Origin: an uncultured virus (IMG/VR IMGVR_UViG_3300033149_002562)
Lineage: Duplodnaviria; Heunggongvirae; Uroviricota; Caudoviricetes
Direction: 5' to 3' (one strand)
DNA length: 64,000 nt
Virus record (IMG/VR): IMGVR_UViG_3300033149_002562
The position numbers and the translations under genes are program-made. Positions 153-26,906 of the stretch are shown one piece after another. Below the pieces are notes generated by a model that saw only the letters and a program-made list of their open reading frames with translations, ran no database searches and was not told where the DNA came from. Within the stretch, counting starts at the first letter, position 1; each line of letters begins with the position of its first letter.

Positions 153-926
153 TTAGCGGATCACCTCCACGCCCGGGGGATCGGCCCAGCCCGCGGGCAG
201 CTTGCTACCGCGAAGGTCGAGGTAACCGCCTACTTTGCCGACGCGAAAGCCTCTGGGCACCTTGCAGCCGCGTAGATTGAGGTCGCCCCCCACGCCGCCG
301 ATGCGAAAGCCCCTAGGTAGCTTGCAGCCGCTAAGGTAAAGCGATCCGCCTACTTTGCCGACGCGAAAGCCCGCGGGCAGCTTGGCGCGAGTGAGATCGA
401 TGTCACCGCACACGTTCCCGATACGAAAGCCCGCGGGCAGCTTAGCGTGTGCGAGATCGATATCGCCGCGCACTTTCCCGATACGGAATCCCTCAGGGAG
501 CTCGCAGCCGTATAAGTCAAGCCAGCCGCCTACATTGCCGATGCGAAAGCCAGCGGGCAGCCTGGCACCCGAGAGATCAAGCGATCCGGCTATGTCGCCA
601 ATGCGGAACCCCTCGGGCAGCTCACAATACGAAAGATTGAGCGTGCCGCCTACGTTCTCGATACGGAAGCCAGCGGATAACGTAGCACCAACGAGGTCGA
701 GATAGCCGCCGGAGTGCTTGAGAATCACATCGAGTTGCGCCGCGGTCGATTCCTCGACGCGCCACCATCGCAGAACCCGCACGCGCCGGTGACACTGAAC
801 GCCGAGCTTGCCCGGCACGTCCTGCCAAGGGCCGGGCTGGCCGTCTGGCGGCAGTTCGTACCGGAAACGGCCGTAGCGATCATTCAGGCTGGTTCCGTCT
901 TCCCGCAGTAATTTCAATCCGATCAT
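153..926 (-). CDS. LRR-like 20-aa repeat protein
   Basis: Start re-called at MIGLKLL with GGAGG RBS; 8 full plus 1 partial repeats of GGxLDLxGxxLPxGFRIGxV. Confidence 0.75.
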   Translation of the reverse strand: MIGLKLLREDGTSLNDRYGRFRYELPPDGQPGPWQDVPGKLGVQCHRRVRVLRWWRVEESTAAQLDVILKHSGGYLDLVGATLSAGFRIENVGGTLNLSYCELPEGFRIGDIAGSLDLSGARLPAGFRIGNVGGWLDLYGCELPEGFRIGKVRGDIDLAHAKLPAGFRIGNVCGDIDLTRAKLPAGFRVGKVGGSLYLSGCKLPRGFRIGGVGGDLNLRGCKVPRGFRVGKVGGYLDLRGSKLPAGWADPPGVEVIR

Positions 927-976
927 CGTTTCCTCCGTTGGGTTATTTACCCTGAACCGTCGGGCGCGTGAGTCGG

Positions 977-1447
977 CTACTCGCTGGCCCGACAGGCGGC
1001 CTCCTCGGCCATGCGCTTGACCTCCTCGGGCAGGTCGGCGCAATCGCGGCGGAGCCGATAGGCCCACTGGGGCTCTCGGCAGGCGGCCTCCTCGGCCATG
1101 CGCTTGACCTCCTCGGGCAGGCCGGGGCAATGGCGCCGGAGGTGATAGGCCCACGCTGGCTCTCGGCAGGCGATTTCCTCGGCACGACGCTTGACCTCCT
1201 CGGGAAGGTCGGCGCAATCGCACCGGAGCCAGCAGGCCCACTCCGGCTCCCGGCAGGCGATTTCCTCGGCCATGCGCCGCACCTCCGCGGATAAGTCGGC
1301 GCAATTGCAGCGCAGCCAGCAGGCCCATTCCGGGGCCTGGGGCAATCTCAGGCACGCCTCGATGGAGCCTGCCCATTTCGCCACTCTGATCGCGTCGTGG
1401 CAGGCGCCGTTCTTCTCCGCTATGCGGAGCAGCTCTTCATACTCCAT
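977..1447 (-). CDS. Cys-containing 29-aa helical repeat protein
   Basis: Four PEWAxxLRxxCADLPEEVKRMAEExACRE repeats; AGGAGG RBS; paralog at 2720..3109. Confidence 0.75.
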   Translation of the reverse strand: MEYEELLRIAEKNGACHDAIRVAKWAGSIEACLRLPQAPEWACWLRCNCADLSAEVRRMAEEIACREPEWACWLRCDCADLPEEVKRRAEEIACREPAWAYHLRRHCPGLPEEVKRMAEEAACREPQWAYRLRRDCADLPEEVKRMAEEAACRASE

Positions 1448-1526
1448 CACTTCCTCCTTTCGTCAGGGTTTACCCGGAACCGCCGGGCACGGGGGCGGCG
1501 CCGTGTGTGCCGCCGACAAGCTACGC

Positions 1527-2210
1527 TCACGCAATCAGATCGGAGACATCGACCCCACGAGCACGGTCCTCGTCCGTCAACTCGCAGTCGTCCAGGTCGC
1601 CGCTCACGCCGGTAAGGCAGCCCTGCACGCCGGTCAGGTCGCCCCATACGCCTCTGAGGCAGCCTCGGACGCCACTGAGGTCGCCCCATACGCCGCTCAG
1701 GTCGCCCCGGACGCCACTTAGGTCGCCTCGCACGTCGGTCAGGTCGCCTCGGACGCCGCTGAGGTCGCCCCGAACGCGGGTCAGGTCGCCTCGGACGCCA
1801 CTGAGGTCGCCCCATACGCCGCTCAGGTCGCCTCGGACGCCACTGAGGTCGCCCCATACGTGGCTCAGGCAGCCCCGAACGTCGCTCAGGTCGCCCCATA
1901 CGCCCGTCAGGCAGCCCCGCACGCCGCTCAGGTTGCCCCGAACGCCGCTCAGGTTGCCCTCCACGTCAGTCAGGTAGCCCCATACGCGGCTCAGGTCGCC
2001 CCGCACGCGGGTCAGGTCGCCCCATACGCCGCTCAGGTTGCCTTCCACGCCGGTAAGGCAGCCTCGCACGTTGGTCAGGTCGCCCTGCACGCCGCTGAGG
2101 TCGCCTCGCACGTCGGTCAGGTCGCCTCGCACGTCGGGCGGGGGACCGACAACCGACTCGCCCTCGGCATTTCGGTACAACACATCCAGCTTTCGCAAAG
2201 CAGGTTTCAT
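1527..2210 (-). CDS. 7-aa repeat (GVRGDLS) putative beta-solenoid protein
   Basis: About 26 tandem xVxGDLS/T repeats (21-bp DNA period); AAGGAG RBS. Confidence 0.75.
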   Translation of the reverse strand: MKPALRKLDVLYRNAEGESVVGPPPDVRGDLTDVRGDLSGVQGDLTNVRGCLTGVEGNLSGVWGDLTRVRGDLSRVWGYLTDVEGNLSGVRGNLSGVRGCLTGVWGDLSDVRGCLSHVWGDLSGVRGDLSGVWGDLSGVRGDLTRVRGDLSGVRGDLTDVRGDLSGVRGDLSGVWGDLSGVRGCLRGVWGDLTGVQGCLTGVSGDLDDCELTDEDRARGVDVSDLIA

Positions 2211-2284
2211 CGGATTCTCCTTGTACTGCGGGGCCGTCGCCCCTCGGGGTTACTTGCCTTCGTCGGGTCTGTTACCTCCAAGGC

Positions 2285-2665
2285 TCACTCGGCCTCGGCT
2301 TTATCCCATTCCTCTTCCAGCCGAGAAATCAGCGCGTCGCGTGCCGCCATGCCAGCCTGCGACGCCCGATCCATCAGGCGACGAAGCCAGTCAGGTACGT
2401 GTTGGTGCGACGTGCAAGACACGAGGCCAGCGTTGTAGCCCCAATCCCTCGTCTTGTCGTGCCTGCCGCCGTTCCAGGCGGCAAAGTTTCCGTCCGGCTC
2501 GAAGTCGAACCGATGGGCGGCGTGGTACTCAGGGCTGTCGGCCAGGACGCCGTAGGCGGCGTCCCGAAAGGCGTCGCGGATTTCGTCTTCCCACGCCGCC
2601 GTCCGGTCGTCCACGCAACCTGAGCACACGATTTCCGCGTTAGTGCATACGTAAACGGTGTACAT
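2285..2665 (-). CDS. hypothetical protein
   Basis: 126-aa ORF, GGAGG RBS, preceded by the cassette motif. Confidence 0.7.
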   Translation of the reverse strand: MYTVYVCTNAEIVCSGCVDDRTAAWEDEIRDAFRDAAYGVLADSPEYHAAHRFDFEPDGNFAAWNGGRHDKTRDWGYNAGLVSCTSHQHVPDWLRRLMDRASQAGMAARDALISRLEEEWDKAEAE

Positions 2666-2719
2666 GCTGTCCTCCCTTTGCGTTAGTGTTTACCCGGAAC
2701 CGCCGGGGGCGGGGGCCGG

Positions 2720-3109
2720 TCACACGCTGGTCGAACACGCAACCTCCTCCGCCATGCGCTTGACCTCCTCGGGCAGATCGGCGCAATTGCACCGGAGGCG
2801 ATAGGCCCATTCCGGCTCCCGGCAGGCGGCCTCCTCGGCCATGCGCTTGACCTTGACCTCCTCGGGCAGGTCGGCGCAATCGCACCGCAACCAGCAGGCC
2901 CATTCCGGCTCCCGGCAGGCGACCCGCTCTGCCCGACGCTTGACCTCCTCGGGCAGGTCGCGACAATTGCGGCGCAGCCAGTATGCCCATTCCGGGGCCT
3001 GGGGCAATCTCAGGCACGCCTCGATGGAGCCTGCCCATTTCGCCACTCTGAGCGCGGCGGGGCAGGCGCCGTTCTCCTTCGCTATGCGAAGTAGCTCTTC
3101 ATACTTCAC
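2720..3109 (-). CDS. 29-aa helical repeat protein, paralog of 977..1447
   Basis: GTG start (VKYEELLRIAKENGAC); three repeats; long near-identical DNA stretches shared with 977..1447. Confidence 0.75.
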   Translation of the reverse strand: MKYEELLRIAKENGACPAALRVAKWAGSIEACLRLPQAPEWAYWLRRNCRDLPEEVKRRAERVACREPEWACWLRCDCADLPEEVKVKRMAEEAACREPEWAYRLRCNCADLPEEVKRMAEEVACSTSV

Positions 3110-3242
3110 GATTCTCTCCCTTCGTTGAAGTGTTACCCGGAGCCGCCGGGCGCGGGGGCTGACTACTTGCCAGCCAGTCAATGTTCCGCCCGTCCTAAGT
3201 ACGAGCTTACTTTTCCGCGATCCACCAGCCACTGGTGGAATG

Positions 3243-3494
3243 TCATCGTGTTTGTCGGATATTTCGCGCGGAACGCTTGATACAACTGCCGTAGCTCGCG
3301 CAGCGGCCGTTTGTCCCGCATGACGAAATATACACCATCAATTTTCCTGCGCATGATCTTGCTCCTGTAGTAGCGTGGGGGCAGGGTACTCGCCTTCCCG
3401 TCAATACCCCGCCATTTCGGCGTACTGCTCCCGCTGCAAAGCGGAGGTGCGACGCCAGCGGGGAATCGGAGTCCCGTACTTCGGTTTCAGGCAT
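3243..3494 (-). CDS. hypothetical Cys-rich protein
   Basis: ATG after GGGAG RBS and cassette motif; no recognisable domain. Confidence 0.4.
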   Translation of the reverse strand: MPETEVRDSDSPLASHLRFAAGAVRRNGGVLTGRRVPCPHATTGARSCAGKLMVYISSCGTNGRCASYGSCIKRSARNIRQTR

Positions 3495-3599
3495 GTCGAT
3501 CTCCCTTAGGGTTTGCCCGGAACTGCCGGGCGTTGGAACCAGCACGCGCCGGTTCGTTAATCTCGGTACATAGTTTTCGTGCCTCCAAGTCCTCGGCGG

Positions 3600-4235
3600 T
3601 CAGGCATGATTGCGGTCCTGTGTATCTTGCGCGGCTCGCTTTGCGGCGAGTGCTCTTTCGTAGTACCGTACCTTGGCCTTGTATTGTTTGATCTTGGTCG
3701 CAGCGAGCTTGTGTTTGCGCGTCCACTCGGCCAGTTTCTTTTGCGCGTACACGGCCCGCCTCTCTTGCAAGGTGGGAGGGGACTTCTTCGGCCTCCGCTT
3801 CGGCTCCTTCCGCCAAGCGGCCAGCAGCGCTTCCCGGTTGGCGAGGAACTTTTCCTTGACGCGCTTGGCGTGCCACTCGGTCTTCCTTTCCTGCGCTTTC
3901 CACTTTAGCTCCGTCCAGTGGAGCCAGAGGTGAATAATCTCGTGAGCGGTCACATGTACCAGCGCGTTGATGCGTCTTCGCTCCTGAGCCTCCGCCGACG
4001 CTTCGCCGTACCAGGCTCGCCGCTTGCTCTTTTGCCAATCAGCAAACGTCCCGCCCGCCGAAACGTGGATACGATTACTTGGCCACCACGCTCGGCCGCT
4101 GGTACGTCCGTCGGTACGCCGACTGAACTTAGCCTCTTGCAACTGCCGGATCGGGTAGCCGATTTCCTTACAGCACCACGAGATCATGCGGCGCAGGAAG
4201 TAGTCAGGATAGCTTGTCGTATTGATGAGTCGCAC
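3600..4235 (-). CDS. HExxH zinc metalloprotease-like protein (SprT/IrrE-like)
   Basis: VHVTAHEIIH motif; basic coiled C-terminus; GGAG RBS before GTG. Confidence 0.6.
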   Translation of the reverse strand: MRLINTTSYPDYFLRRMISWCCKEIGYPIRQLQEAKFSRRTDGRTSGRAWWPSNRIHVSAGGTFADWQKSKRRAWYGEASAEAQERRRINALVHVTAHEIIHLWLHWTELKWKAQERKTEWHAKRVKEKFLANREALLAAWRKEPKRRPKKSPPTLQERRAVYAQKKLAEWTRKHKLAATKIKQYKAKVRYYERALAAKRAAQDTQDRNHA

Positions 4236-4240
4236 GACAT

Positions 4241-4510
4241 CTACTCCATGAATGTGATGTCGCCTGTCCTGACAATAATGCAACCAGCGATTCGGCGGCA
4301 CGTGCTGCGGGAGGCCAAGTACCCGCAAGCGATCTCGTCGGCCAATGCCGTGGCGGGCACAAGCGCAACCTTGCCGCCTCTCCGTCTCCCGACTACGTAG
4401 CCGGTCTCGGTGTACTCGCGTCGCTTAAAGCTCGACAGCGACCAAGACGAGGCCTGCCACGTTGCGCGCGGACACGCGCGCACCGCGTTGATGTAATCCT
4501 CAGTAGTCAT
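4241..4510 (-). CDS. hypothetical protein
   Basis: 89-aa ORF with AGGAG RBS, packed in the leftward cluster. Confidence 0.6.
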   Translation of the reverse strand: MTTEDYINAVRACPRATWQASSWSLSSFKRREYTETGYVVGRRRGGKVALVPATALADEIACGYLASRSTCRRIAGCIIVRTGDITFME

Positions 4511-4525
4511 GCGTTGGCTCTCCTG

Positions 4526-4804
4526 CTATTCTGACCGGTAGGCCCGGATCATGTCATCGACCGGGCCCACCGGGAGGCGGGCATACTCGGCCGCCGACAT
4601 CGCGGCCGAGTCCCTCCGGCCGGAGTTGGACTCGTAGTGCAACTCCAGCCGCTCTACCGGATCAACTTCGATCCGGTAGAGCTCGAATCCCTTGTCCCGG
4701 TTGACGTATTCGCCCACTTCGTGGGCATACGCCTCGCGGGACGGGACGTAGACGCCGTGGAAAGCACCTCGCCCCGTCGTCCGATGGGGACATAGAATAG
4801 TCAT
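4526..4804 (-). CDS. hypothetical protein
   Basis: MTILCPHR start with GGAG RBS after the cassette motif. Confidence 0.6.
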   Translation of the reverse strand: MTILCPHRTTGRGAFHGVYVPSREAYAHEVGEYVNRDKGFELYRIEVDPVERLELHYESNSGRRDSAAMSAAEYARLPVGPVDDMIRAYRSE

Positions 4805-4883
4805 AACTCCCTCCTTTACCTTAGGGTTTGCCCGGAACCGCCGGGCACGGTGGCCGGTCACTCGCCGGCCCGAGAAACGTCAG

Positions 4884-5069
4884 TCAGTTCCACAGGTGGA
4901 TTGGACGCAGGTCCCATGCCCGGCGAATTTCGACCCGCAGGCAGAGATAATGTTTTCCCGCGCTCTCTTCGGCCCAGGCGGAACGACCTCGTCGCCGCAT
5001 CTTGATCGCGTAGGCATCCGCCTCTGCCTCGGAGTGACATCGGAATCGTTTGATGGCAGTGGTTTTCAT
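4884..5069 (-). CDS. hypothetical protein
   Basis: MKTTAIKR start, AAGGAG RBS, truncated cassette motif upstream. Confidence 0.55.
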   Translation of the reverse strand: MKTTAIKRFRCHSEAEADAYAIKMRRRGRSAWAEESAGKHYLCLRVEIRRAWDLRPIHLWN

Positions 5070-5104
5070 CGGTCTCTCCTTCGTTAGGGTTTGCACGGTG
5101 CCGG

Positions 5105-5620
5105 TCACTTGCCGGCCTGTAGTTCTTGTCGGATCTCGACCAGATAACGGGCCAGGTCCATCCGGCTACGGCTGGGATCGAGCGACCAGCCGTGCCGAGC
5201 CCAAGTGAATCCGGCGTCTTCCCGCTCGGCCGTCAGCGGTACGTCGTGGTCGGCAACGCGAACCACGACGTCCTGCGCCGCGTGCCGATAGTAGGCGGAG
5301 CCACTCTGGCTGCGGTATTCGCGGCGGAAGCCGAGACGCCGGAGCCAGTCTTGTAACCAGCGGCGGGTCTGCTCAGTCGGGTCGGCCCGCTTGGCCGCTA
5401 TCGTCGCGCGGCGTTTCTCGACAGCGCGGGCCCGGCGGAGTTCCGCGTGCAGGGCGCGGCGACGGGCACGATTCTCTGGCAGGCACGCTCGCTCGTGAGC
5501 CTCGCGGTCGGCCTCGCGCTGGAGACGCTTACGGTTCGGCGTCCCGGTCGGCACGATCGTCGGCCGGAACTGCGCCTCGAACGCGTCAATCTCGTGCTGA
5601 ATGACCTGGCTGTCTCGCAT
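5105..5620 (-). CDS. hypothetical protein
   Basis: MRDSQVIQ start with GGAG RBS downstream of a putative promoter. Confidence 0.6.
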   Translation of the reverse strand: MRDSQVIQHEIDAFEAQFRPTIVPTGTPNRKRLQREADREAHERACLPENRARRRALHAELRRARAVEKRRATIAAKRADPTEQTRRWLQDWLRRLGFRREYRSQSGSAYYRHAAQDVVVRVADHDVPLTAEREDAGFTWARHGWSLDPSRSRMDLARYLVEIRQELQAGK

Positions 5621-5645
5621 GGCTTTTTCTCCCGTGTCTGCCTGT

Positions 5646-5675
5646 AGTATATCGGACACGGTATCAGTCCATCAA
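5646..5675 (-). promoter_or_regulatory. putative sigma70-type promoter for the leftward cassette cluster
   Basis: TTGATG-N18-TATACT on the minus strand, about 25 bp upstream of the 5620 start. Confidence 0.5.
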
Positions 5676-5735
5676 TAGCAATCCACGGGAAAAATCCGCA
5701 GATTCTCGGGGTGCCCGAAACGGGCAGAATTGACG

Positions 5736-5760
5736 TAACCCTATACGGCGCAACGAGTTA
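5736..5760. promoter_or_regulatory. TAACYC-N13-GAGTTA inverted-repeat site (copy 1 of 4)
   Basis: TAACCC-TATACGGCGCAAC-GAGTTA within GACGTAAC...GTTACGTC arms; similar sites at 9828, 10431, 61909. Confidence 0.55.
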
Positions 5761-6060
5761 CGTCGATTTCGGCGGCTTCTGCCGCCCAATTTTGTTGGTA
5801 TTATTTTCTCGCCGATTGTGAATATTCGGCTCACGCGGCCCCGAACCGCTCCCGTCCAGCAGCCAGCCCGCCCCTACCCCCGTTGCACCAGCAAGCCGTA
5901 CCAACAGATCGGCCGATGGATTTCGCTCCAGCCCCGCCTCAAGCCGCGAGACGCGAGCTTGCGTCGTGCCAGCAGTCGCCGCCAGCCGCCGTTGCGAGTA
6001 GCCTCGCCGTTCGCGTGCCAATCGCAGCCTACTGCCGATGCCCAACTCGCTACTGCCCAT
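5758..6060 (-). CDS. Xre/Cro-family HTH transcriptional regulator
   Basis: RLRLARERRGYSQRRLAATAGTTQARVSRLEAG...PSADLLVRLA...WLL is a canonical HTH_3 pattern. Confidence 0.9.
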   Translation of the reverse strand: MGSSELGIGSRLRLARERRGYSQRRLAATAGTTQARVSRLEAGLERNPSADLLVRLAGATGVGAGWLLDGSGSGPREPNIHNRRENNTNKIGRQKPPKST

Positions 6061-6074
6061 TTGTCCGTCTCCTG

Positions 6075-6314
6075 TTACGCGCCGCTGCCCGATACAGCAC
6101 GCCACTTTTTCGCGGTCATGGATCGCGCCTTAGCCTCGCTGAAGGCACGTACCGGTTTCGGGTCAGCACCGTATACCGTACCGGGATTGAGCGAGTGAGC
6201 CGCCAGCGTTTCGTTTTCGCCGCGGTACACGATCACACCGCCGTACCCCATGACAACGTAGTGCATCCCCTTTACTGGGCCAAGCGTCCCAGCTCGGTCT
6301 TTTTCTTTGGTCAT
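6075..6314 (-). CDS. hypothetical protein
   Basis: 79-aa ORF, GAGG RBS, co-oriented with the Xre gene. Confidence 0.55.
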   Translation of the reverse strand: MTKEKDRAGTLGPVKGMHYVVMGYGGVIVYRGENETLAAHSLNPGTVYGADPKPVRAFSEAKARSMTAKKWRAVSGSGA

Positions 6315-6331
6315 TTATAGTGCCTCACAAT

Positions 6332-6709
6332 CTACGTTGTTCCGTGATTGTCACATCCAATTACCGTTCGGCGTCGCTCAACCGCTTCTCGCAAGACTGA
6401 CATCAACCAACCCTGTGAGAAGAAAATAAACGACCGCTCTGTCTGGCGATACGGCTTATCGAACACCCACGTCCGCTTCGTTCGCCATCGTGTCCACCGT
6501 TTCGCGCCTGCCTGTTTTACCAATACCCGTTGACCGCGAGTGACTATGTACGAGGTTCGAGTAGCGGGTCCGCCCACGGAGCAACCGCCGCGATCTTGTT
6601 CAGATCGCCGCATACGGCAAGTTCCAGCCCAATCGCCAACAACAGGATAGTCGTCTTGCATTACAGAACGCCTTGAACATTCGCCACTGATAACCGCCGT
6701 TGCCCACAC
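6332..6709 (-). CDS. hypothetical protein (start uncertain)
   Basis: ORF co-oriented with neighbours; no motif recognised. Confidence 0.4.
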   Translation of the reverse strand: MWATAVISGECSRRSVMQDDYPVVGDWAGTCRMRRSEQDRGGCSVGGPATRTSYIVTRGQRVLVKQAGAKRWTRWRTKRTWVFDKPYRQTERSFIFFSQGWLMSVLREAVERRRTVIGCDNHGTT

Positions 6710-7187
6710 TTATGTCTCTTGGTAATTATACCATGAATGGTAAAGGTTTGCGCGCAAAACCCCCCTGCCCCATGCCCCGAGTTACGGTCGCTTCGCACCG
6801 GGTGCCTGCCTCGTTTTCGTGTGCCGCCCAACAGGGTGTTTGTCAACGGTCGCTCGTCCGAGAGGCATCCTGCCTCGCGGGGTCGCTTCCGCCCGACGCA
6901 CGCAGTCCCCTTGTCAGCGCCGCCTCCAATCGGCGAAGTTGGACGACGGGCAGGGCCGGGCCCTCACCGTGGGAAAGCCTTGACGACGTATAGGCTGAAC
7001 CGCCGCCGACCAGGATCATCCAACCCTGGTTATCGGATTTCCCCTACCCTGCGCGTCGGCTTATCGTCCGCAGACTCTCGGCCCGGGTAGTCCGCTGTGG
7101 GGGGCCGTTCTGCCACCAGAGGCTGCATTTTGCGCGCGGACTGCGCACGCAAACGACCCGCCGAGCACAATGTCTCGGGGGCCGCTG

Positions 7188-7215
7188 TTGACAAGACCAC
7201 AAGATGTAGTATATT
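7188..7215 (+). promoter_or_regulatory. putative promoter overlapping an NrdR-box-like sequence
   Basis: TTGACA-N16-TATATT; spacer contains ACCACAAGATGTAGT. Confidence 0.45.
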
Positions 7216-7266
7216 GAGCGTAATGCATGGCGTGTAGGCCGCCATCAAAGGCTGTGTTTCGTGCGC

Positions 7267-7301
7267 GGAAAGGCCGTCGCTTTAGGCGGCCTTTCCTTTT
7301 T
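7267..7301 (+). terminator. intrinsic terminator
   Basis: GGAAAGGCCG / CGGCCTTTCC 10-bp stem followed by TTTTT. Confidence 0.7.
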
Positions 7302-7380
7302 CCCCAGAGTCTACCTTGGACCGTAGCCGTGTCAATGCGAAGTTTCGGGAGCAGCGTCGCCTTGCGCGGACGAAAGTCCC

Positions 7381-7701
7381 TTATTGTGACAAGGGACAAT
7401 CTCCTTCTTCTGCCGCTGCTTGCGCCTCTCTGAAGCGAAGTTCTCCGCCCTCTTTAACTCTCAGTTGTTTGTCCATTGCCTTCTGGCGCTTCTCCATCTT
7501 GTCGATTGCGTCTTCGTGGCCGATTAGCCATTTGATGTTATCCCACAGTGCGTCACCGAAGTTTTTGTCTGACGACTTCGCCTCGACAAAAGACCCTGCC
7601 ACCAGCCCCGCCACCGCAAGCACAAATGCAAGCCCCGCAAGATACAGTAATGGACTGCCGCACAACTCACACTTGTTTCGTCGTTCAGTCGTCATCTTCA
7701 T
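7381..7701 (-). CDS. small membrane protein homologous to an internal segment of this phage's tape measure protein
   Basis: TM segment plus SFVEAK...FGD.L..NIK.L.G.EDA.D...GGELRFREA.AAAE shared with 36761..39064. Confidence 0.75.
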   Translation of the reverse strand: MKMTTERRNKCELCGSPLLYLAGLAFVLAVAGLVAGSFVEAKSSDKNFGDALWDNIKWLIGHEDAIDKMEKRQKAMDKQLRVKEGGELRFREAQAAAEEGDCPLSQ

Positions 7702-7867
7702 TTTGACGTTCTCCCATGTCGTCAGGGTCCGCGGCCGCCACGATACGTCGGCACCGGAGACATTGAACCTCCAGTTCGCCAGCCACGACGGCTTGCATCG
7801 TATCGTCTTCGCAATACGGGCACCACGTCACGGCGGCTGCTAATGTCTGCTTCGTCACGCGCGTCAA
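7685..7867 (-). CDS. small zinc-ribbon protein
   Basis: CPYC...CLRC motif; overlaps both neighbours. Confidence 0.55.
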   Translation of the reverse strand: MTRVTKQTLAAAVTWCPYCEDDTMQAVVAGELEVQCLRCRRIVAAADPDDMGERQNEDDD

Positions 7868-8487
7868 CTCCCGCTAAGCCACTCGGCTGACAGCAATTCT
7901 GCCACGCGACCATCGGACAGGTCTGTCTGCTCCTGCGACCGCATTTTATTCGCTGCTTGGTCAAACACTCCGCGCTGTTCCGCCGTCAACATGATCGGCT
8001 TGCCCATTTCGACTTGCGAGTCGTCACCCTGGTCTGATGCTAGGTCGTCGGTGTCCAGGGTTGGGGCCGCTTCGATGCCAGATTGCAGCGCAGCCAACTC
8101 GTCTTGACTCCACCACGTCTCCGCGACCGCGAATCCTTCGGCTTTGAGTGCGTCCAATTGTTCCAACAACCGGGCGTCGTCGAAGTATGAGAGATCGGCG
8201 GTTCGGTTCAATGCAAGAGCCAGCGTCTTCGTCTGCTGGTCGTCAAGGTCGAGTCTCACTACGCGGCACGACTGCCAGCCCAGTCTCTTCATCGCCGCGT
8301 ATCGGCCGTTGCCGCCGACGATCAAGCCGTCACTTGCCCGAATGACGAGAGGCTCCGGTTGCCCAAACTCCTCCAGCGACGCCGCGATAGCCGCGATGCT
8401 TCGCTCGTCATGCAGCCGAGCGTTGTCGGGGTTCGGCGTCAACTCGTCAAGTGTTGCCGTTTCGATTTGCAGGTTCGCAAGGTTCAA
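7864..8487 (-). CDS. ParB/Srx N-terminal domain protein (start uncertain)
   Basis: LTPNPDNARLH...IAASLEEFGQPEPLVI...IVGGNGRYAAMKRLG...ALALNR. Confidence 0.85.
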   Translation of the reverse strand: MNLANLQIETATLDELTPNPDNARLHDERSIAAIAASLEEFGQPEPLVIRASDGLIVGGNGRYAAMKRLGWQSCRVVRLDLDDQQTKTLALALNRTADLSYFDDARLLEQLDALKAEGFAVAETWWSQDELAALQSGIEAAPTLDTDDLASDQGDDSQVEMGKPIMLTAEQRGVFDQAANKMRSQEQTDLSDGRVAELLSAEWLSGS

Positions 8488-8489
8488 CG

Positions 8490-9305
8490 TTACGCCTTCT
8501 TTATAAGGGTAGGTGCGTTGTAGCGTTTGCATGTTACGCCAGACGCTGTAGCCCGGTAGACGGCTATCTCCACACCATCCTGCGTCAACGACAAGCTTCG
8601 TTGGCGGTCAACCGGGGCGTTCTTGCGCCGGGCGGCTTTGCGTGCTGCCTCGGCCTCCTCTTGCTCCTTGGCCTTGCGCTCGTCGATTGCCTTGACGATC
8701 TGCGACACTCGGCCTTGCGTGATGCCGTGCTCGGCCGCAACCACCTTCTGTGATTTGCGCTGTGTGCGCACCTCCTCCCATACCGCGTGTTTTTCGTTTG
8801 CGCTGACTTTGCGTCGGGCGTCGAACGGTTCGGGCTCTGCTTCGCCGTCGCCATCGGATTCGGAGGGGATATTAGCTTTCGGCGGGTGCCGGTTGCTAAT
8901 ATCCCATCGCCTTACGGTTCGTTCATCGACCCCCAGCAGCGCCGCAATCCGCTCCAGGGTCCACTCCTGCTCACGCAGCGCCGCCGCCACCTCACGCCGC
9001 CTCGCATCATGCTCCGCCTTCTGCTCGGCGGTCATGTTGCGCCGCTTGTTGTTCGTGCCCAGCACGTAGCCTATTTTTGCCTCCTCCGACATCGACTCGA
9101 CCCCGGGGAGGACTCGCCAAGGGCAGTCTGGCGCGATACGAAAGCGGTGGTGGCCGTCCAGGATGTCGCCGTTGGCGTCGCAGACGATAGCGTCCATGAC
9201 GCCGCGTTCAGCTATATCCGCTGCCAGCGCGTCGCGCTCGGCTTGCCGCAAGGGGGGCAACAGCTTCGCGTAGGTTGGATTGATCTTGGGGTGCTTTCGA
9301 GCCAC
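8490..9305 (-). CDS. ParB-like domain plus HTH protein
   Basis: LAADIAERGVMDAIV...ILDGHHRFR, NNKRRNMT, and HTH TLERIAALLGVDERTVRRW. Confidence 0.85.
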   Translation of the reverse strand: MARKHPKINPTYAKLLPPLRQAERDALAADIAERGVMDAIVCDANGDILDGHHRFRIAPDCPWRVLPGVESMSEEAKIGYVLGTNNKRRNMTAEQKAEHDARRREVAAALREQEWTLERIAALLGVDERTVRRWDISNRHPPKANIPSESDGDGEAEPEPFDARRKVSANEKHAVWEEVRTQRKSQKVVAAEHGITQGRVSQIVKAIDERKAKEQEEAEAARKAARRKNAPVDRQRSLSLTQDGVEIAVYRATASGVTCKRYNAPTLIKKA

Positions 9306-9310
9306 TCTTC

Positions 9311-9684
9311 GCTCCTTTCCGCTCCGTTACGGCCGTTCCGCTCCGGTCCTCTCCTTTCCGCTCCAATCCAATCCGGTCCGTTCCATTACGGCCGTTCCGT
9401 TCCGGTCCCATCCTGTCCTTTCCCGTCCGATCCGGTCCGTTCCGTTCCACTCCGTTACGGCCGCTCCGTTCCATTCCAATCCGCTCCACTCCAGTCCGGT
9501 CCCATCCAATCCTTTCCGCTCCAATCCGTTACGGCCGTTCCGGTCCGGTCCTCTCCGCTCCGTTCCAATCCACTCCGATCCAATGCCGTCCATTCCGCTA
9601 CGGCCGCTCCGCTCCGATCCCATCCGATCCGCTCCAGTCCGTTCCCATCCCATCCGCTCCGTTACGGCCGCTCCGTTCCAGTCC
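9311..9684 (-). repeat. GGA-NN pentamer array 2 (5 complete units; candidate guide-RNA array)
   Basis: On the minus strand, 64 GGA-NN pentamers (one GCATT variant) separated by GGCCGTAAC/GGCCGTAGC/GGCCGTAAT. Confidence 0.92.
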
Positions 9685-9853
9685 GGTCACCTCCTCGATT
9701 TTGTGCCCGCCGCTCAGAGTGCGTTCAACTCGCCACGTACCTGGCCACGGCACGTACACCGGCTGCCCGAGCGGTACGATCCACGACACACCCCGAGTCT
9801 CGCCCGATTCCTGTTTTTCGCTCATCACAACCCTTTGTCCCACAAAGGTTTAT

Positions 9854-9884
9854 GTCGCGGCATATTCTTTTAATATGCCGCGAC
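9854..9884. promoter_or_regulatory. palindromic operator-like site GGCATATT-N5-AATATGCC (copy 1 of 3)
   Basis: GTCGCGGCATATT-CTTTT-AATATGCCGCGAC, perfect 13-bp arms. Confidence 0.7.
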
Positions 9885-10082
9885 CCTGTGCGGGGCTGTC
9901 CTTTGGGGGCGTTCGTTCCGCGGCCCCAAGTTGCCGTCTAGCCCCCACGGTGGCCGACGATCACGTGGGAATCCGGCAAGCGCACGGAGCACCTGCTGTC
10001 GCTGATGCTCCGTAAGGTTTGGCGCGATGACGGTTACGGCTGGCAGTTGTCTTCGGTTGGGACACTCGCTCATAGCTCTTAC

Positions 10083-15874: not shown

Positions 15875-16364
15875 CAAAGCTACCAATCTCAGGCCGGAGG
15901 AGTGGCTCGCGTTGACGATTGTCGGCCGCGAGGCGGCGAAGTTTCGTGAGCAAGCGAGGCCCGGTCGCGGGCAGGAGGTGGACCTGTTGCTGCGGATCAA
16001 AGGGACGGTGAATGTAGGGGAGGACGGCAAAACGACGCGGATGATGAAGCCCAGCCAGGAGCAATTACTCGGATGGGTGCTGCACCGGCTCCATGATACG
16101 GGGCACGACGACGCGGCCGAGAGCATTCGCGTTGGGCTGTCGGATTGTGCGTCAAACGGCAATGGGGGACTGCCTGTGCTTGAGGGGTTTCACGAGCTGG
16201 CGAAGGAACTGGTCCGGTCTGTGAGCAAATCGTCGGAGTCGCAGAGAAAAGGGCGGACAACCGGGCATTTCGAGGTCGGCATTGTTGATCAGTCGGAGTT
16301 GAGTGCCGCCGCGGGTGCGTCGCTAATGACGCATACGCGGCGGATTGTGCTCACTGAGGAGTGA
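15864..16364 (+). CDS. hypothetical protein
   Basis: MPVDKATN start, GAGG RBS. Confidence 0.65.
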   Translation: MPVDKATNLRPEEWLALTIVGREAAKFREQARPGRGQEVDLLLRIKGTVNVGEDGKTTRMMKPSQEQLLGWVLHRLHDTGHDDAAESIRVGLSDCASNGNGGLPVLEGFHELAKELVRSVSKSSESQRKGRTTGHFEVGIVDQSELSAAAGASLMTHTRRIVLTEE

Positions 16365-16407
16365 GCGCTATTAGGTTCGTGCCATTTTTCACTAAAGGAG
16401 AAACGTG

Positions 16408-17097
16408 ATGGCAGCCAAAAAGGCATCGGCTAGCAACGAGAACGGGAGGACCAAAGTGGTTTCGATCCCGCCGCTGGAGCAGGGCATCATGGAGGTGACG
16501 CTTGTTGGCGACCGCCCCTTGATGGTCAACAACAAAACGAACGTGGCGGAGGCCGTGGCCGCGCAGTATAGCGGGTCCGGCAAGGCTGGCGCGCTGAAGC
16601 AAGCGCCGGCGTCTGAGGACGAGCAGTACGCCAGGGCGTTTTACGTCCTGCCGAGCAGCCGGCATGCGCCACCGAGTCCGAAGGCGAAGTACGGCATTCC
16701 TGCCAGCGGGATCAAAAAGTGTGCGTGCAAGGCGATTCGCACCACGGGCATCACGGACAACACGACCATCGGCTTGATTTCCAATTCGTTTTGGATCATG
16801 GAGGACGAGGCTGGGCTGTGCGAATTGTCGTTTGACCGATTGGAACGCGACGTGCGGCCGGTGAACATCGGCAGCGGCGTTAAGACCGTCCCGCAAATGC
16901 GGCACCGTCCGATCTTTCACGGATGGAAGGTGAAGCTGCGCATCAAGTTCAACCGCAAGGTCATTTCGGAGGAGCAGATCATCAATTTGTTGTTGCACGC
17001 CGGACAGTATATCGGGCTGCACGAGATGCGGGCCGAGAAGAAACAGGGCACGTGCGGCGGCTTCACGGTAGCGTTGCCGGAGGCGGGCGACGACTAA
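16408..17097 (+). CDS. solo Cas7-like RAMP protein (Vipr-like), putative RNA-guided effector
   Basis: N-terminal strand EVTLVGDRPLMVN, YGIPASGIKKC helix motif, R.RP.F.GWKVKLRIKF, and G-rich loop AGQYIGLHEMRAEKKQGTCGGF; AAGGAG RBS; stop codon is 2 nt before the array. Confidence 0.8.
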   Translation: MAAKKASASNENGRTKVVSIPPLEQGIMEVTLVGDRPLMVNNKTNVAEAVAAQYSGSGKAGALKQAPASEDEQYARAFYVLPSSRHAPPSPKAKYGIPASGIKKCACKAIRTTGITDNTTIGLISNSFWIMEDEAGLCELSFDRLERDVRPVNIGSGVKTVPQMRHRPIFHGWKVKLRIKFNRKVISEEQIINLLLHAGQYIGLHEMRAEKKQGTCGGFTVALPEAGDD

Positions 17098-17099
17098 TC

Positions 17100-17715
17100 G
17101 GAGCGGAACGGCCGTAGTGGATTGGAGCGGACGGGAGCGGATCGGAGGGGATGGGATTGGAGCGGAACGGCCGTAACGGATCGGAATGGACAGGAGCGGA
17201 ACGGAACGGACGGGACTGGACCGGAAAGGAGCGGAACGGCCGTAACGGATAAGACGGGAAGGGACCGGAGCGGAACGGACAGGAATGGACAGGATGGGAT
17301 CGGAACGGAGCGGCCGTAACGGAATGGACAGGAGCGGACAGGACCGGATGGGATTGGACAGGACAGGATTGGACCGGAGTGGCCGTAGCGGAAAGGACCG
17401 GAAAGGAGCGGACCGGACTGGATCGGATTGGATCGGAACGGAGCGGCCGTAACGGAGTGGAGCGGATTGGATTGGATAGGACAGGATCGGAGCGGAACGG
17501 AACGGAACGGCCGTAACGGAACGGAACGGACTGGATGGGACGGGAGCGGAGCGGAAGGGATCGGAGCGGAACGGAACGGAGCGGCCGTAACGGAGTGGAG
17601 CGGATTGGATTGGATAGGACAGGATTGGAACGGAGCGGAACGGAACGGCCGTAACGGAACGGATTGGATCGGAGTGGAACGGACCGGAAAGGAGCGGAGC
17701 GGACTGGAGCGGAAC
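17100..17715 (+). repeat. GGA-NN pentamer array 1 (9 units; candidate guide-RNA array)
   Basis: 107 GGA-NN pentamers (one AGACG variant), units of 10-13 separated by GGCCGTAAC/GGCCGTAGY; ends in a T-rich tract. Confidence 0.95.
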
Positions 17716-17752
17716 GGCTTTTCTCACTTTCTTTTTGCACAAGGAGTAAATA

Positions 17753-18361
17753 ATGATGGAGTCCAAAAAGCCCAAAGCGGCAAAGACAGAGGGCGTTACC
17801 TATCAGTACAAGCTGTCGGAGAACCTGCGCTACGGCAACAAAGCGCAGAAGGCCGCGTTGCTTAAATGGATAAGCCAGCCGAAGTACCGCAAGCGCCGCC
17901 CGACGCCGCAAGAGCTTATCGCGGAGTGCAAGCGGCCGAACAGCGGATTGTACGGGCTCATTGAGGTCCGCCAGAAGCAAGCGGCAGAACTCTATTGGCG
18001 GCAGGCGGCCCAAGACATCCTCCGCCATATCAATGTCGTCAAAGTCAACGTCGTCACAAAGGAGGTGATCGGCAAACCAGTCGTTGCTTTTGTTCCGGTA
18101 AAGTACGAACAGGGCGGGCGGATAGCCGACGACAATTACGTGCCGACCTCCCGCGTAGCGAACGACCCCGCAATGCTCGGCACGGTGATCGAACGAGCGG
18201 AGCGGGAGTTTCTCGCCTGGATGGACAGGTGGGAGCGATTCGACGAGTTCTTGGAGGTCTTCGCCCCCGTGCTCGATGCGTACCGCAAGGTCAAGAAGAC
18301 ATTTCCTGCTGGCGCTGGTTGTGCTGGCATTGACAAGAAGGTGGCGGCGTCGGCACCGTGA
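17753..18361 (+). CDS. hypothetical protein, candidate partner of the RAMP/array locus
   Basis: AAGGAG RBS right after the array; PTPQELIAECKRPNSGLYGLIEV...AAELYWRQAAQDILRHI. Confidence 0.75.
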   Translation: MMESKKPKAAKTEGVTYQYKLSENLRYGNKAQKAALLKWISQPKYRKRRPTPQELIAECKRPNSGLYGLIEVRQKQAAELYWRQAAQDILRHINVVKVNVVTKEVIGKPVVAFVPVKYEQGGRIADDNYVPTSRVANDPAMLGTVIERAEREFLAWMDRWERFDEFLEVFAPVLDAYRKVKKTFPAGAGCAGIDKKVAASAP

Positions 18362-19510: not shown

Positions 19511-20104
19511 ATGTCCTTCGCCTTTACGATCCCCGATTCGTGTCGTGAATTGGCCCACTTGCAGGTGAGTCAATGGCCTGACGAGCCCGACGCCTTCGAA
19601 CGGATCAGCCAGGCAGAGTGGCAGGCTTTCGCGCCACTGGTCGAGTGGCAGCGAGTCAAGACGATCCTCGACCTCGGCTGCGGTCTCGGCCGCATGGCCT
19701 GCTGGATCAATGCTCACGTGCCGGGCCGATCTTTCGTGCTCGCGGACTTTGACGAGGTAAGCACGACCGAGCCACGGTACGAGTGGGAGCCCGGAGACGA
19801 GCGGTACAGCATCGCTGCCAAGACGCGAGAGTTCTGCGCAACGAACGGCCTATCAGCGATGACATACCGAAATCTCGCCGTGCTTGTGCCGTCGTTCCCG
19901 CGGGTGGACCTCGTGGTGTCATTCCTCGCCGTCGGCTTCCATTGGCCGATACCAGATTGGCTGCTTCGACTCCGCTCGCCAATATTCGTCTTCGGGGTGC
20001 GAGCTAACAAATACCGCATCGAAGATTTCACAAGTGACTTCGGCAGCGTCTACTTGCGACCAGGGTTCTGTGAGAAGGAACAGGTACTCATATTGCAAAG
20101 GTGA
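19511..20104 (+). CDS. class I SAM-dependent methyltransferase
   Basis: ILDLGCGLGR motif I; VDLVVS. Confidence 0.8.
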   Translation: MSFAFTIPDSCRELAHLQVSQWPDEPDAFERISQAEWQAFAPLVEWQRVKTILDLGCGLGRMACWINAHVPGRSFVLADFDEVSTTEPRYEWEPGDERYSIAAKTREFCATNGLSAMTYRNLAVLVPSFPRVDLVVSFLAVGFHWPIPDWLLRLRSPIFVFGVRANKYRIEDFTSDFGSVYLRPGFCEKEQVLILQR

Positions 20105-20107
20105 GCG

Positions 20108-20725
20108 ATGTCGGCGTGGAACCCCTATTTCGAGAAGTTTGCCACTATGCATCCAGTCGGGGAGATGCCGTGGCCGGAGCGGTCGTTTGGTGCGCTCGCT
20201 GATCTGACTGTGAAGCAGTATCGCCGCCGGACCGAGTGGGTCCGCCTTTTCGCATGGGCTATCCCGACTCCAGAAGCTATCAATCTGCTTGCGTCGTACT
20301 CTCCATTAGTCGAGATTGGGGCAGGCACCGGCTATTGGGCGAGGCTCATCGCGGAAGCGGGCGGCGACATCCTAGCCTATGACATCCACCCGCCCCGCCG
20401 CGGAAAAAAGACTCGGGGGCACAATCGTTACCACGGTCGCATCCGGTACTTCGATGTGCGTAAGGGCGGCCCTAGTAAACTGCGCCGATACCCCAACCGC
20501 ACGCTATTTCTGTGTTGGCCGCCGTACGATGCGCCGATGGCCTGGCAGTGTCTGCGGAAGTACCGAGGCCGTCACGTCGCGATAGTAAGTGAAGGCGAGG
20601 GCGGGTGCAGCGCGGACGACAAGTTTTGGACACTCTTGCGGTCGTCCGGCTTTCGGCCTACGGTAAGATGTGACCTACCTCAATGGGTCGGGATACATGA
20701 CTATCTAGCTGTATGGGAGAGGTAG
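20108..20725 (+). CDS. SAM-dependent methyltransferase-like protein
   Basis: LVEIGAGTGYWA, LAYD, LFLCWPPY. Confidence 0.75.
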   Translation: MSAWNPYFEKFATMHPVGEMPWPERSFGALADLTVKQYRRRTEWVRLFAWAIPTPEAINLLASYSPLVEIGAGTGYWARLIAEAGGDILAYDIHPPRRGKKTRGHNRYHGRIRYFDVRKGGPSKLRRYPNRTLFLCWPPYDAPMAWQCLRKYRGRHVAIVSEGEGGCSADDKFWTLLRSSGFRPTVRCDLPQWVGIHDYLAVWER

Positions 20726-21085
20726 ATGACCGCGGTAACGAGCAACGGGCATGGCGTTTTGGAGTGGAGCGGCGGCTCAGCTCCGATTAGGCGATGGGAG
20801 ATCACTCATCACCGCGATTCGGCTACGGTCTTCGCTCGCATCAGTTCGGAAGTGGGAGGGCCTGTTCTCGGGGAACATTGCTTCGCTAAGTTGCTAATGG
20901 CTGGGGGATACTGCTCGTACGCAGGCGTAGTGAGTCAAGTCCATGTGTATGCCGAGGATGACATAAGCGCCACTGAATTAGAGGTCTTCGTTGGCGGTAG
21001 GTACGTTTCGTACCCACCGCTGCCGCAAGAACCACTCCAGCCACCACCACCGCGCCGTCGCATTGTATTCGAGGACGAACCATGA
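20726..21085 (+). CDS. hypothetical protein
   Basis: Translationally coupled ORF. Confidence 0.55.
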   Translation: MTAVTSNGHGVLEWSGGSAPIRRWEITHHRDSATVFARISSEVGGPVLGEHCFAKLLMAGGYCSYAGVVSQVHVYAEDDISATELEVFVGGRYVSYPPLPQEPLQPPPPRRRIVFEDEP

Positions 21086-22074
21086 AGGTGCTAGTGCTAT
21101 TCCCCAAACGGTTGTGGGAGACGAAAGTCAGCCCCGCTCGTCGTCACGTCATTCGGGCGCTGAAGCGAACCACTGGCGTGCGAGTGAAGGTCAGCGGACA
21201 GGGGTGGCCCGATTGGGACGCGACAAACGACGGGCCGCTGAACGTCAATCGGCTGATGCCCGACGCTGACGCTGTGCTGTGGTACAAGCCGCAGGGGGCC
21301 AGAGAAGTACCGCCAATCAAAGGAGCTGCGCAGATTACCCGACGATGGCTTGTCGTCGAGACGTTCAACGAGTGTCACGCAGGTCAGGCCGTCGAATCGG
21401 CGAAGCTAGGGACGGGGCTCATGGTTCTACACCACGCGAACGACCGAGTACGGGCCAAGGCCGCCGTCCGCAAACATCATCCCGCTCCGGATTCGTGCAG
21501 GATCGTCCACGTCGCACACTGCGCCGAGCGGGAGGTGTTTGCCGCCGCCGCAAGGCCGTGGGATGGACGGGATACTGACGTGGTGCTGACTGGCGTGTTA
21601 TCGTCGGAGTATTATCCATTTCGCTGCCGACTCGCTGATCTGATTCAACGAAAGAAGTTACCAGGTCAATGCGTTGTTCACAGGCACCCAGGCTATCGGG
21701 CAAAGAACTTGGCGGCGTGCGATGAACGGGTGAAAGAGTACGCCAAGTTACTCGGCCGCTCGAAGATCGCGCTCGGCTGCTCGTCACGGTTTCGCTACGC
21801 CTTGGCCCACTACGTTGAAAAGGCGATGGCTGGCTGCCTCGTAGTGGGTGATCTGCCGGACCAGGCCGGGCACGAGCGATTCGTCGTCGGGTTGAACCCC
21901 GTATGGAGTGACAAGCAAATCGCATTTGAGATCGGTCATTGGCTGAGTAATCCAATAGACGCGGCAGAAAAGGCCATGCAGGGGCACGAGCTGGTGCTGG
22001 ACGAATACACGCAAGAGCAATACGTCAAGCGGCTGCTAGCGGCTATCCAGGATTGTGCTGCTGGCGGTCAATGA
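21082..22074 (+). CDS. glycosyltransferase (CgeB/GT4-like)
   Basis: LTGVLSSEYYPFR, YAKLLGRSKIAL, EKAMAGCL; similar to 18393..19340. Confidence 0.75.
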   Translation: MKVLVLFPKRLWETKVSPARRHVIRALKRTTGVRVKVSGQGWPDWDATNDGPLNVNRLMPDADAVLWYKPQGAREVPPIKGAAQITRRWLVVETFNECHAGQAVESAKLGTGLMVLHHANDRVRAKAAVRKHHPAPDSCRIVHVAHCAEREVFAAAARPWDGRDTDVVLTGVLSSEYYPFRCRLADLIQRKKLPGQCVVHRHPGYRAKNLAACDERVKEYAKLLGRSKIALGCSSRFRYALAHYVEKAMAGCLVVGDLPDQAGHERFVVGLNPVWSDKQIAFEIGHWLSNPIDAAEKAMQGHELVLDEYTQEQYVKRLLAAIQDCAAGGQ

Positions 22075-24250: not shown

Positions 24251-24251
24251 C

Positions 24252-25238: not shown

Positions 25239-25241
25239 AGG

Positions 25242-26243: not shown

Positions 26244-26902
26244 GCGACGAATACCCCCAACACGTTAGCCTCCCCGAGTAGTTCAGAGTGGTCTTTGTAA
26301 TGACCGAACTTCAGCATCGCCGCGTCGATGTTGCCCCATTTTTGCAGATAGGCGGGGTCGTCGCTGAGTATCGCGCCGAGTCGCTCCGCCATCTCGCGGC
26401 CAGGATTCGGCCCGTCGCCCAGCCTGAGGCACAGATCATGGACGCCAACGACGGCGGCACGCCCTTTGATCTTTTCGTAGAGTCGTAGCCCATCGTCATT
26501 TTTCGGCCCGTCAAGTAGCACGGCTGTTGTAGTATCGTCGCGAGCCAGCGCCTTCGGCACGAACGAATAGCCGTTGCCGACGTGAAAGTGTAGGCGCGCT
26601 CCAAACTTCCTTCGTAGCCTCGCGTCGGCCTCTCGCACACTATGCTTGTCGATGCTGTAGACCGGCCACGTTGCTACGCGGCATAGTACCTCGGTGGAGT
26701 AGCCGTGCTTGCGACCCGACTCGATTACGCGGCGGCAACCAGCCTCCAATGCCAGTGAGCAAAACAGCAGCATCTCGCTGGGCAGTATCGCGTTGTGCTG
26801 TGGTGCGACCAACTCGATGGCCGGGACGAGTGTGAGTGCCCATTTGTCCACGATCCTGTGTATCGCGTCGTTCATTAGAGTTTCCTCTGGCACGGCATCC
26901 AC
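26240..26902 (-). CDS. SAM methyltransferase-like protein
   Basis: VIESGRKHGYST, YSID, LLDGPK, VHD. Confidence 0.65.
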   Translation of the reverse strand: MDAVPEETLMNDAIHRIVDKWALTLVPAIELVAPQHNAILPSEMLLFCSLALEAGCRRVIESGRKHGYSTEVLCRVATWPVYSIDKHSVREADARLRRKFGARLHFHVGNGYSFVPKALARDDTTTAVLLDGPKNDDGLRLYEKIKGRAAVVGVHDLCLRLGDGPNPGREMAERLGAILSDDPAYLQKWGNIDAAMLKFGHYKDHSELLGEANVLGVFVA

Positions 26903-26906
26903 CCTA

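Follow-up and report, generated by a model that had tools for sequence, protein, structure and literature searches.

The small open reading frame and its genome

We analysed a 106-aa open reading frame, hereafter the small ORF, which starts with ATG and lies at 7381-7701 on the minus strand of the window, that is, of the whole 64,000-nt stretch of DNA under study. The window is part of a tailed-phage genome whose own contig is 75,819 nt long. In the small ORF, a core homologous to the phage's tape measure protein (TMP) (aa 19-98) is flanked by a nonhomologous N-terminal part (aa 1-18) and a nonhomologous 8-aa tail. The features of the locus and the larger gene groups referred to below are as follows.

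8490-9305 and 7864-8532, minus strand: two overlapping ParB-like genes with HTH domains (PF02195; phrog_620, E 8.5e-38)
7685-7867, minus strand: upstream 60-aa ORF, zinc-ribbon-like with two CxxC pairs, coding score 0.208
7381-7701, minus strand: the small ORF
7585-7650, minus strand: predicted transmembrane helix of the small ORF (aa 18-39), following a positively charged N-terminus (net +2)
7408-7647, minus strand: homologous core of the small ORF (codons 19-98), copied from the TMP
7267-7335: boundary elements downstream of the small ORF, a 12-bp GC-rich hairpin (7267-7296) and a promoter-like site (7335-7308, minus strand), from a consensus scan and a fold
153-9305, minus strand: left arm; besides the small ORF and the two ParB-like genes, it carries repeat proteins and an XRE-type repressor-like gene (5758-6105)
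10.5-15.7 kb, plus strand: replication/recombination module, with a helicase, a PD-(D/E)XK nuclease and RecT
36761-39085, minus strand: TMP of 774 aa, or 767 aa in the database gene call, which begins at residue 8
37544-37774, minus strand: parent segment, TMP residues 438-514, made up of the final helix within the hydrophobic region (aa 386-456) and the long helix that follows
61186 to about 33 kb, minus strand: structural arm from the terminase (59330-61186) to the distal tail, with portal, protease, capsid and connector proteins and the TMP between

The minus-strand genes around the small ORF form a tight operon in the order ParB/HTH gene (8490-9305), ParB-like gene (7864-8532), 60-aa ORF and, last, the small ORF, whose start overlaps the stop of the 60-aa ORF by 17 nt and whose ATG is preceded at 9 nt by GGGAG, a Shine-Dalgarno-like motif. 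The 60-aa ORF has no family match in Pfam or PHROG; a frameshift fusion between this zinc-ribbon-like ORF and the small ORF was considered, and no signal for it was seen. The promoter-like site and the hairpin 3′ of the small ORF are products of consensus scans only. Judging from its neighbours, the ParB-like genes and the XRE repressor-like gene, the small ORF appears to sit in the early/regulatory arm of the genome.

We assessed the coding character of the small ORF with a codon-usage log-ratio built from 21 confident genes. The ORF scored 0.142 in frame, whereas the five remaining frames at this locus gave values between -0.11 and -0.42. In-frame windows of 106 codons from real genes had a mean of 0.224 (sd 0.088, 5th percentile 0.067, n = 118), and off-frame windows a mean of -0.236 (95th percentile -0.09, n = 236). 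The codon usage of the small ORF is thus coding-like, since its value falls inside the range of real genes. By part, the values were 0.268 for the core, -0.01 for the first 18 codons and -0.34 for the final 8, the last of these being non-coding-like. No match to the small ORF was found in Pfam, PHROG, PADLOC (2023) or NCBIfam, and a protein atlas gave no usable feature match, the structural neighbours being unrelated helical proteins with query TM-scores of 0.37-0.51. Taken together, these data suggest that the small ORF is probably a real gene and, as far as such searches define families, that it belongs to no described one.

The nearest cellular relatives of the TMP, with 42-45% identity over ∼360 residues, lie in metagenome-assembled genomes (MAGs) labelled Phycisphaerae, Planctomycetales and Pirellulaceae (6/9 loci). 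These relatives in Planctomycetota MAGs point to a Planctomycetota host, and the phage probably infects an uncultured planctomycete. No integrase was recognised among the 77 ORFs scanned, and the window's only tRNA is a tRNA-Ile with anticodon TAT at 63081-63152 (plus strand).

Several other features of the genome were recorded alongside the locus. Between the replication and tail genes lies an accessory block (19511-32513, ∼19.5-32.5 kb) that a ∼75-kb phage would not usually carry: at least five ORFs with glycosyltransferase domains, three of them paralogous, a radical-SAM enzyme that binds B12, two methyltransferase-like ORFs and one resembling a sulfotransferase. Within the structural arm, between head and connector genes, is a holin-like ORF (47264-47578, minus strand; phrog_689, E 3.3e-6), near which no endolysin family was recognised. 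Two long arrays built from a degenerate 5-nt repeat (9310-9684 and 17097-17717) bracket the replication/recombination module in inverted orientation, the plus-strand repeat being TCCGT-like in the former and GGAAC-like in the latter. Their higher-order periods are 10 nt and about 59-69/138 nt, containing GGCCGTAACGG, and they generate long spurious ORFs (8787-9941, plus strand, and 16351-17775, minus strand) that match each other. The array at 9310-9684 immediately precedes the ParB/HTH gene and so may serve as a binding array of the centromere or origin type.

In the left arm, an ORF-poor stretch of ∼1 kb (6332-7380) contains, at an element spanning 7188-7305, a plus-strand promoter-like TTGACA-16-TATATT with 11/12 matches, followed by the 12-bp hairpin and a T-run. 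The predicted RNA of ∼85 nt (fold -41.2 kcal/mol, z -3.46) would be antisense to the transcript expected from the minus-strand promoter-like site at 7335-7308, and it might function as an antisense regulator, with the XRE repressor-like gene as its neighbour; a search of the 1.2 kb downstream of the small ORF against Rfam found nothing at E up to 1. Further along the arm, a minus-strand cluster of repeat proteins (153-3232) includes ORFs 977-1450 and 2720-3232, built of ∼27-residue Cys/Trp-rich repeats, ORF 1527-2210, with ∼25 tandem 7-residue repeats, and ORF 153-1376, whose second half (from ∼923) carries ∼20-residue Leu/Gly-rich repeats. None of these has a Pfam match. ORF 3600-4328 (minus strand, 242 aa) has an HExxH motif and a very basic C-terminal half, and no family match in Pfam, PHROG or NCBIfam; it may work with the nearby XRE regulator as a metalloprotease-like partner.

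A copied module of the tape measure protein

The TMP of the window was identified by matches to PF10145 (PhageMin_Tail; E 2e-50), TIGR01760 (E 4.9e-78) and phrog_1533 (E 2e-102), and tblastn links it to genes annotated as tape measures in 1,155 phage records, with coverage of the protein never exceeding 44%. By BLASTP, residues 19-91 of the small ORF pair with TMP residues 438-507 with 41/73 identities (56%), 77% positives and one 3-residue gap (E 9e-23); in a self-BLASTP of all window ORFs of at least 50 aa, the same pair scored E 1.6e-23. A local alignment extended the match to 77 codon pairs (small ORF 19-98 against TMP 438-514) with a single in-frame 9-nt gap, and nucleotide identity over these codons was 158/231 (68.4%), or 71, 79 and 55% at the three codon positions. 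The 150-nt flanks of the core showed no significant similarity to those of the TMP segment (shuffle P 0.16 downstream and 0.62 upstream). An earlier sequence-only reading of this DNA had described a stand-alone, diverged yet open copy of a TMP membrane segment outside the tail module, and our results bear this out: the ORF with the quoted sequence is present and ATG-started, its alignment over about 75 aa at about 37545-37765 agrees with the segment we delimited, it is an open paralogue of that segment, and it lies in the early/regulatory arm, ∼29 kb away from the TMP and not within the head-tail module (33-61 kb).

The structural predictions place the ends of the copy at helix boundaries. An AlphaFold2 model of TMP 385-560, all-helical and of low confidence (pLDDT 53.2), contains helices at model residues 56-76 and 80-129, corresponding to TMP 440-460 and 464-513, and since these coincide with the copied piece, it appears to comprise two whole predicted helices. 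For the small ORF itself, AlphaFold2 run without an alignment predicted helices at 17-39, 46-60 and 63-97, again at low confidence (mean pLDDT 63.9). By sequence comparison, then, the small ORF is a copy of one discrete TMP module, namely, the last hydrophobic helix and the long helix after it.

The predicted product has an 18-residue N-terminus of its own with a net charge of +2, and a 67-residue C-terminal part in which 40% of residues are charged. Its Kyte-Doolittle 19-residue maximum is 2.35, at aa 18-36, and the hydrophobic region of the TMP stays below this value with a maximum of at most 1.89. Hydropathy, N-terminal charge and the AlphaFold2 helix all predict insertion into the membrane, and the positive-inside rule suggests that the C-terminal domain would face outward. 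A V-x-A pattern (V-E-A) right after the helix makes signal-peptide cleavage possible. We discarded a lipoprotein reading, since by eye the residues before Cys11 and Cys14 form no lipobox and the hydrophobic stretch comes after these cysteines.

Searches for relatives of the small ORF returned nothing that stands alone. Among 5.8 billion protein clusters, restricted to proteins of 58-186 aa, only the ORF itself was found, and phmmer over 1.84 billion representatives recovered the ORF and one other protein, P0002 (E 8.4e-17), an identical (767/767) match to the TMP of the window. A protein database search with TMP residues 425-525 likewise matched only the TMP itself. Scans of IMG/VR and JGI metagenomes gave no stand-alone homologue, and 50,697 phage records gave no match at E up to 1. 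In GTDB genomes, a scan that used the TMP alone as query gave no locus, and one that used an alignment gave 9, 6/9 of them in Planctomycetota MAGs; in five of these Planctomycetota genomes, which carry related prophage TMPs, the best match to the small ORF had E 0.15. Three related viral contigs (23-69% complete) match the small ORF, or their own TMP segment, inside TMP genes only.

We also looked at the site itself in relatives, among which none with the region assembled is closer than ∼50% TMP identity. A 63-kb relative has a ParB homologue at 43% identity, and at the matching site after it there is no TMP-derived ORF; a 67-aa ORF, a 72-aa ORF and then an opposite-strand epimerase follow, and the 72-aa ORF is not similar to the 60-aa ORF of the window (E 1.7). 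The neighbouring ParB-like gene, used as a probe, found nothing in IMG/VR, and the nearby helicase found a 70%-identical relative on a contig of 3,965 nt, too short to reach the locus of the small ORF. In all collections searched, therefore, the small ORF is a singleton, unique to this genome as judged by sequence.

Three related TMPs (L001, L003 and L005) are ∼51% identical to that of the window over residues 8-489 and have the homologous helix and the motif that follows it, but they lack ∼18 residues common to the window TMP and the small ORF. These shared residues suggest that the copy derives from the TMP of its own lineage and not from a distant one. The simplest history would be an intragenomic duplication that is now old (dS ∼1.3), the alternative being capture from an unsampled close relative.

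The divergence between the two copies is mostly synonymous. We obtained pS 0.617 and pN 0.225, giving a pN/pS of 0.365 (bootstrap 95% interval 0.26-0.51), and, after Jukes-Cantor correction, dS 1.30, dN 0.27 and dN/dS 0.21. For comparison, we mutated the TMP segment at random, with 5,000 replicates taken to the observed 73 differences: 8.4% (420 replicates) remained stop-free, and 0/420 of these had a pN/pS as low as that observed. When the simulation was taken to 36 differences, 24% remained stop-free and ∼1/1,213 came down to the observed ratio. The sole indel between the copies is in frame (9 nt).

Amino-acid changes were polarised with three outgroup TMPs, whose alignment is uncertain beyond the first ∼40 columns. 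On this basis, 5 changes were assigned to the branch of the small ORF and 6 to that of the TMP, with 19 ambiguous and 39 positions identical. A rate in the small ORF at least 4-fold that of the TMP was rejected (P 0.012), and a 2-fold excess was not (P 0.12). The comparison suggests that the TMP has lost 3 residues from the helix, with the small ORF keeping the ancestral helix length, and that the small ORF also keeps an ancestral Gly where the TMP has Gln.

Mostly synonymous divergence together with balanced changes on the two branches argues against neutral decay, and the small ORF looks maintained by purifying selection. In an alternative reading, a low dN/dS is also expected after recent capture from the TMP of an unsampled relative, which would mimic the selection signal, as the differences would all have accumulated in TMPs that were functional. 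The sequence-only reading had proposed that a dN/dS near 1, a lack of expression and absence from relatives would mark the ORF as a neutral relic. The ratio and the distribution came out on opposite sides: the ratios are well away from 1 in both forms, and a stand-alone homologue is absent everywhere, as far as the data allow.

Possible roles of the copy

The explanation that we favour, tentatively and with a probability of roughly 0.38, is that the small ORF is a maintained gene for a membrane-anchored TMP mimic acting in superinfection exclusion. The phage lineage would have copied a module of its own TMP, the last hydrophobic helix and the following helix of ∼50 residues, and placed the copy as the last cistron of the early ParB-like operon. 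The product would be a small single-pass membrane protein with its short basic N-terminus in the cytoplasm and a charged helical domain of ∼67 residues outside; alternatively, cleavage after V-E-A at the end of the helix might free the charged domain into the periplasm. Because it keeps the surfaces of the TMP membrane module, the mimic would most likely bind, at the cytoplasmic membrane, to the TMP that an incoming phage of its own or a closely related kind brings with it. Once bound, it would stop the TMP from assembling the DNA-entry channel, as a free copy of a helix pair that is normally packed within the TMP assembly would be expected to disturb channel assembly, and the outcome would be homotypic superinfection exclusion by molecular mimicry. 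What the analysis shows is homology to the TMP with defined module ends, an open frame with coding-like usage, a pattern of divergence typical of purifying selection and a predicted helix in the membrane; from these we infer the topology, expression, TMP binding and exclusion phenotype of the small ORF.

The next explanation, which we hold to be somewhat less likely, is that the small ORF is a recent relic. A TMP fragment of ∼240 nt, the phage's own or that of a co-infecting relative, would have entered the end of the ParB operon through illegitimate recombination, would by chance have come to lie in frame with an upstream ATG, and would be functionless and as yet undecayed. The singleton status of the ORF in every collection searched and its absence from the matching site of the nearest relative are consistent with this, as is the non-coding-like usage of its C-terminal 8 codons. 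Moreover, the genome holds a second partial paralogue pair, ORFs 977-1450 and 2720-3232 (68% over 156 aa), which indicates that duplication is active in it. The low dN/dS and the balanced branch changes fit as well if the donor was a functional TMP, but no TMP in the databases is closer to the small ORF than the phage's own, so that a foreign donor would have to be an unsampled one. If the fragment was instead of intragenomic origin, the dS of ∼1.3 implies a long residence, and over this time the frame has stayed open with only an in-frame indel and no excess of amino-acid changes. A chance insertion would also have had to yield fragment ends that coincide with the modelled helix ends, and a new N-terminus bringing a start codon, a Shine-Dalgarno-like motif and positive charges before the helix.

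Less probable again, and in our view distinctly improbable, is a role in the phage's own cycle, either as a partner or regulator of newly made TMP, holding its hydrophobic segment or timing tail assembly, or as an early decoy that titrates a TMP-recognising factor of the host or a prophage (Tab-, SNIPE- or Avs-like). The evidence from selection and gene context serves this explanation as well as it does exclusion by a mimic, and TMP-binding host and prophage systems do exist (Tab, SNIPE and Avs18). Against it, the conserved central core of the TMP, and not the membrane segment, is what Avs18 recognises according to the available part of the source (PMC13581612), SNIPE acts during injection, before phage gene expression, and no known defence or anti-defence family was matched in PHROGs or PADLOC. 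Furthermore, an outward-facing, membrane-anchored domain would not meet cytoplasmic TMP or cytoplasmic sensors.

A donor cassette for TMP diversification by gene conversion or a diversity-generating mechanism, which the sequence-only reading had listed among its options, is suggested by the presence of two diverged copies of one module in one genome and by a 48-nt stretch near the 3′ end with 41/48 identities, but we consider it very improbable, given that this stretch is not significant (shuffle P 0.078), that the longest identical run is 14 nt (P 0.27) and overall nucleotide identity only 68%, that the copies are direct repeats ∼30 kb apart, so that crossing over would remove the intervening replication and tail genes, that no reverse transcriptase was found among the 77 ORFs scanned, and that the copy is equipped with a start codon of its own and with features of a membrane anchor.

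If the small ORF does encode an exclusion factor of the mimic type, it would represent a self-derived, dominant-negative form of immunity whose specificity is inherited from the target, and since this specificity would come from homology to the target, exclusion groups would be predictable from sequence. The broader proposition, that phages can make an exclusion factor by copying the membrane-inserting module of their own TMP into an early operon, the copy then co-assembling with and poisoning the entry channel, we advance with somewhat more reserve. The way in which TMPs open a path for DNA across the cytoplasmic membrane, and the means by which a resident phage closes it off, are only now being worked out, as with the T4 Imm-TMP complex and SNIPE. 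A natural, free-standing transmembrane helix with its adjacent helix would mark an autonomous, interaction-competent module of a siphophage TMP, and the small ORF would be a ready-made reagent for testing dominant-negative inhibition of channel formation. We regard the small ORF as unusual and as probably functional, and the proposed mechanism as attractive; the value of the case is limited by its singleton status and its likely uncultured host. Titles and the starts of abstracts, searched non-exhaustively, yielded no description of a stand-alone TMP-derived membrane protein.

Comparison with known systems

The premise of the sequence-only reading, that TMPs are targets of superinfection exclusion and of some host sensors, holds in the available portions of the reports on T4 Imm, HK97 gp15, Tab and Avs18, and also for SNIPE. 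Avs18 is described there as sensing TMPs (PMC13581612), and SNIPE associates with TMPs at the membrane (PMC13190303). No sequence membership of the small ORF in a described exclusion family, the class that includes T4 Imm, HK97 gp15 and P22 SieA, was found in Pfam, PHROGs, PADLOC or NCBIfam.

The TP901-1-type TMPs (PF10145/TIGR01760) are the proteins to which the small ORF is related by sequence, being homologous (56%) to residues 438-514 of one of them. It differs from a TMP in length (106 aa against 774), in being encoded away from the tail module and in having no PF10145 core, and is therefore a gene derived from a fragment and not a tape measure itself. An i-spanin of the Rz type was considered as well, given the N-in/C-out helix and the periplasmic helical domain that are predicted, and was rejected: the small ORF is not encoded in a lysis cassette with an o-spanin lipoprotein partner, no spanin PHROG was matched, the neighbours are ParB-like and zinc-ribbon genes, and the sole holin-like ORF is ∼40 kb away.

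Tab and anti-Tab of Pseudomonas phage JBD26 offer a parallel in specificity. In the part of the report available (PMC10884400), Tab is a prophage competition system that targets the C-terminal part of the TMP, its specificity mapping to the TMP of the rival, and it is neutralised by the phage's anti-Tab. As described there, Tab blocks tail assembly late in infection, and not DNA entry, as the small ORF is proposed to do. Homology of Tab to TMPs is not described in that part of the report, and PADLOC (2023) gave no sequence match between Tab and the small ORF.

HK97 gp15, a YebO-like moron, is a small inner-membrane protein that, according to the accessible text (PMC3594210), excludes HK97 and related phages at DNA entry in a tail-dependent manner, the tail region being where its specificity lies. 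The small ORF resembles it as a small phage protein whose membrane location is predicted. Whereas gp15 derives from host yebO and is a moron inside the tail operon, the small ORF is TMP-derived and stands at the end of an early ParB-like operon, and the two have no sequence relationship.

A parallel to the proposed mechanism is T4 Imm, which, as far as the available part of the preprint goes (bioRxiv 10.64898/2026.03.06.709160), is a small phage membrane protein that binds the TMP domain next to the transmembrane helix and blocks genome entry. The small ORF would likewise be a small membrane protein, and it corresponds to the very part of the TMP that Imm targets there, the transmembrane helix and the adjacent helix. 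Imm, in contrast, has multiple helices and is unrelated to the TMP in sequence, while the small ORF is a TMP paralogue with a single predicted transmembrane helix and has no Imm-like family match in Pfam or PHROG. What would set such a putative exclusion factor apart from both Imm and gp15 is its derivation from the target itself.
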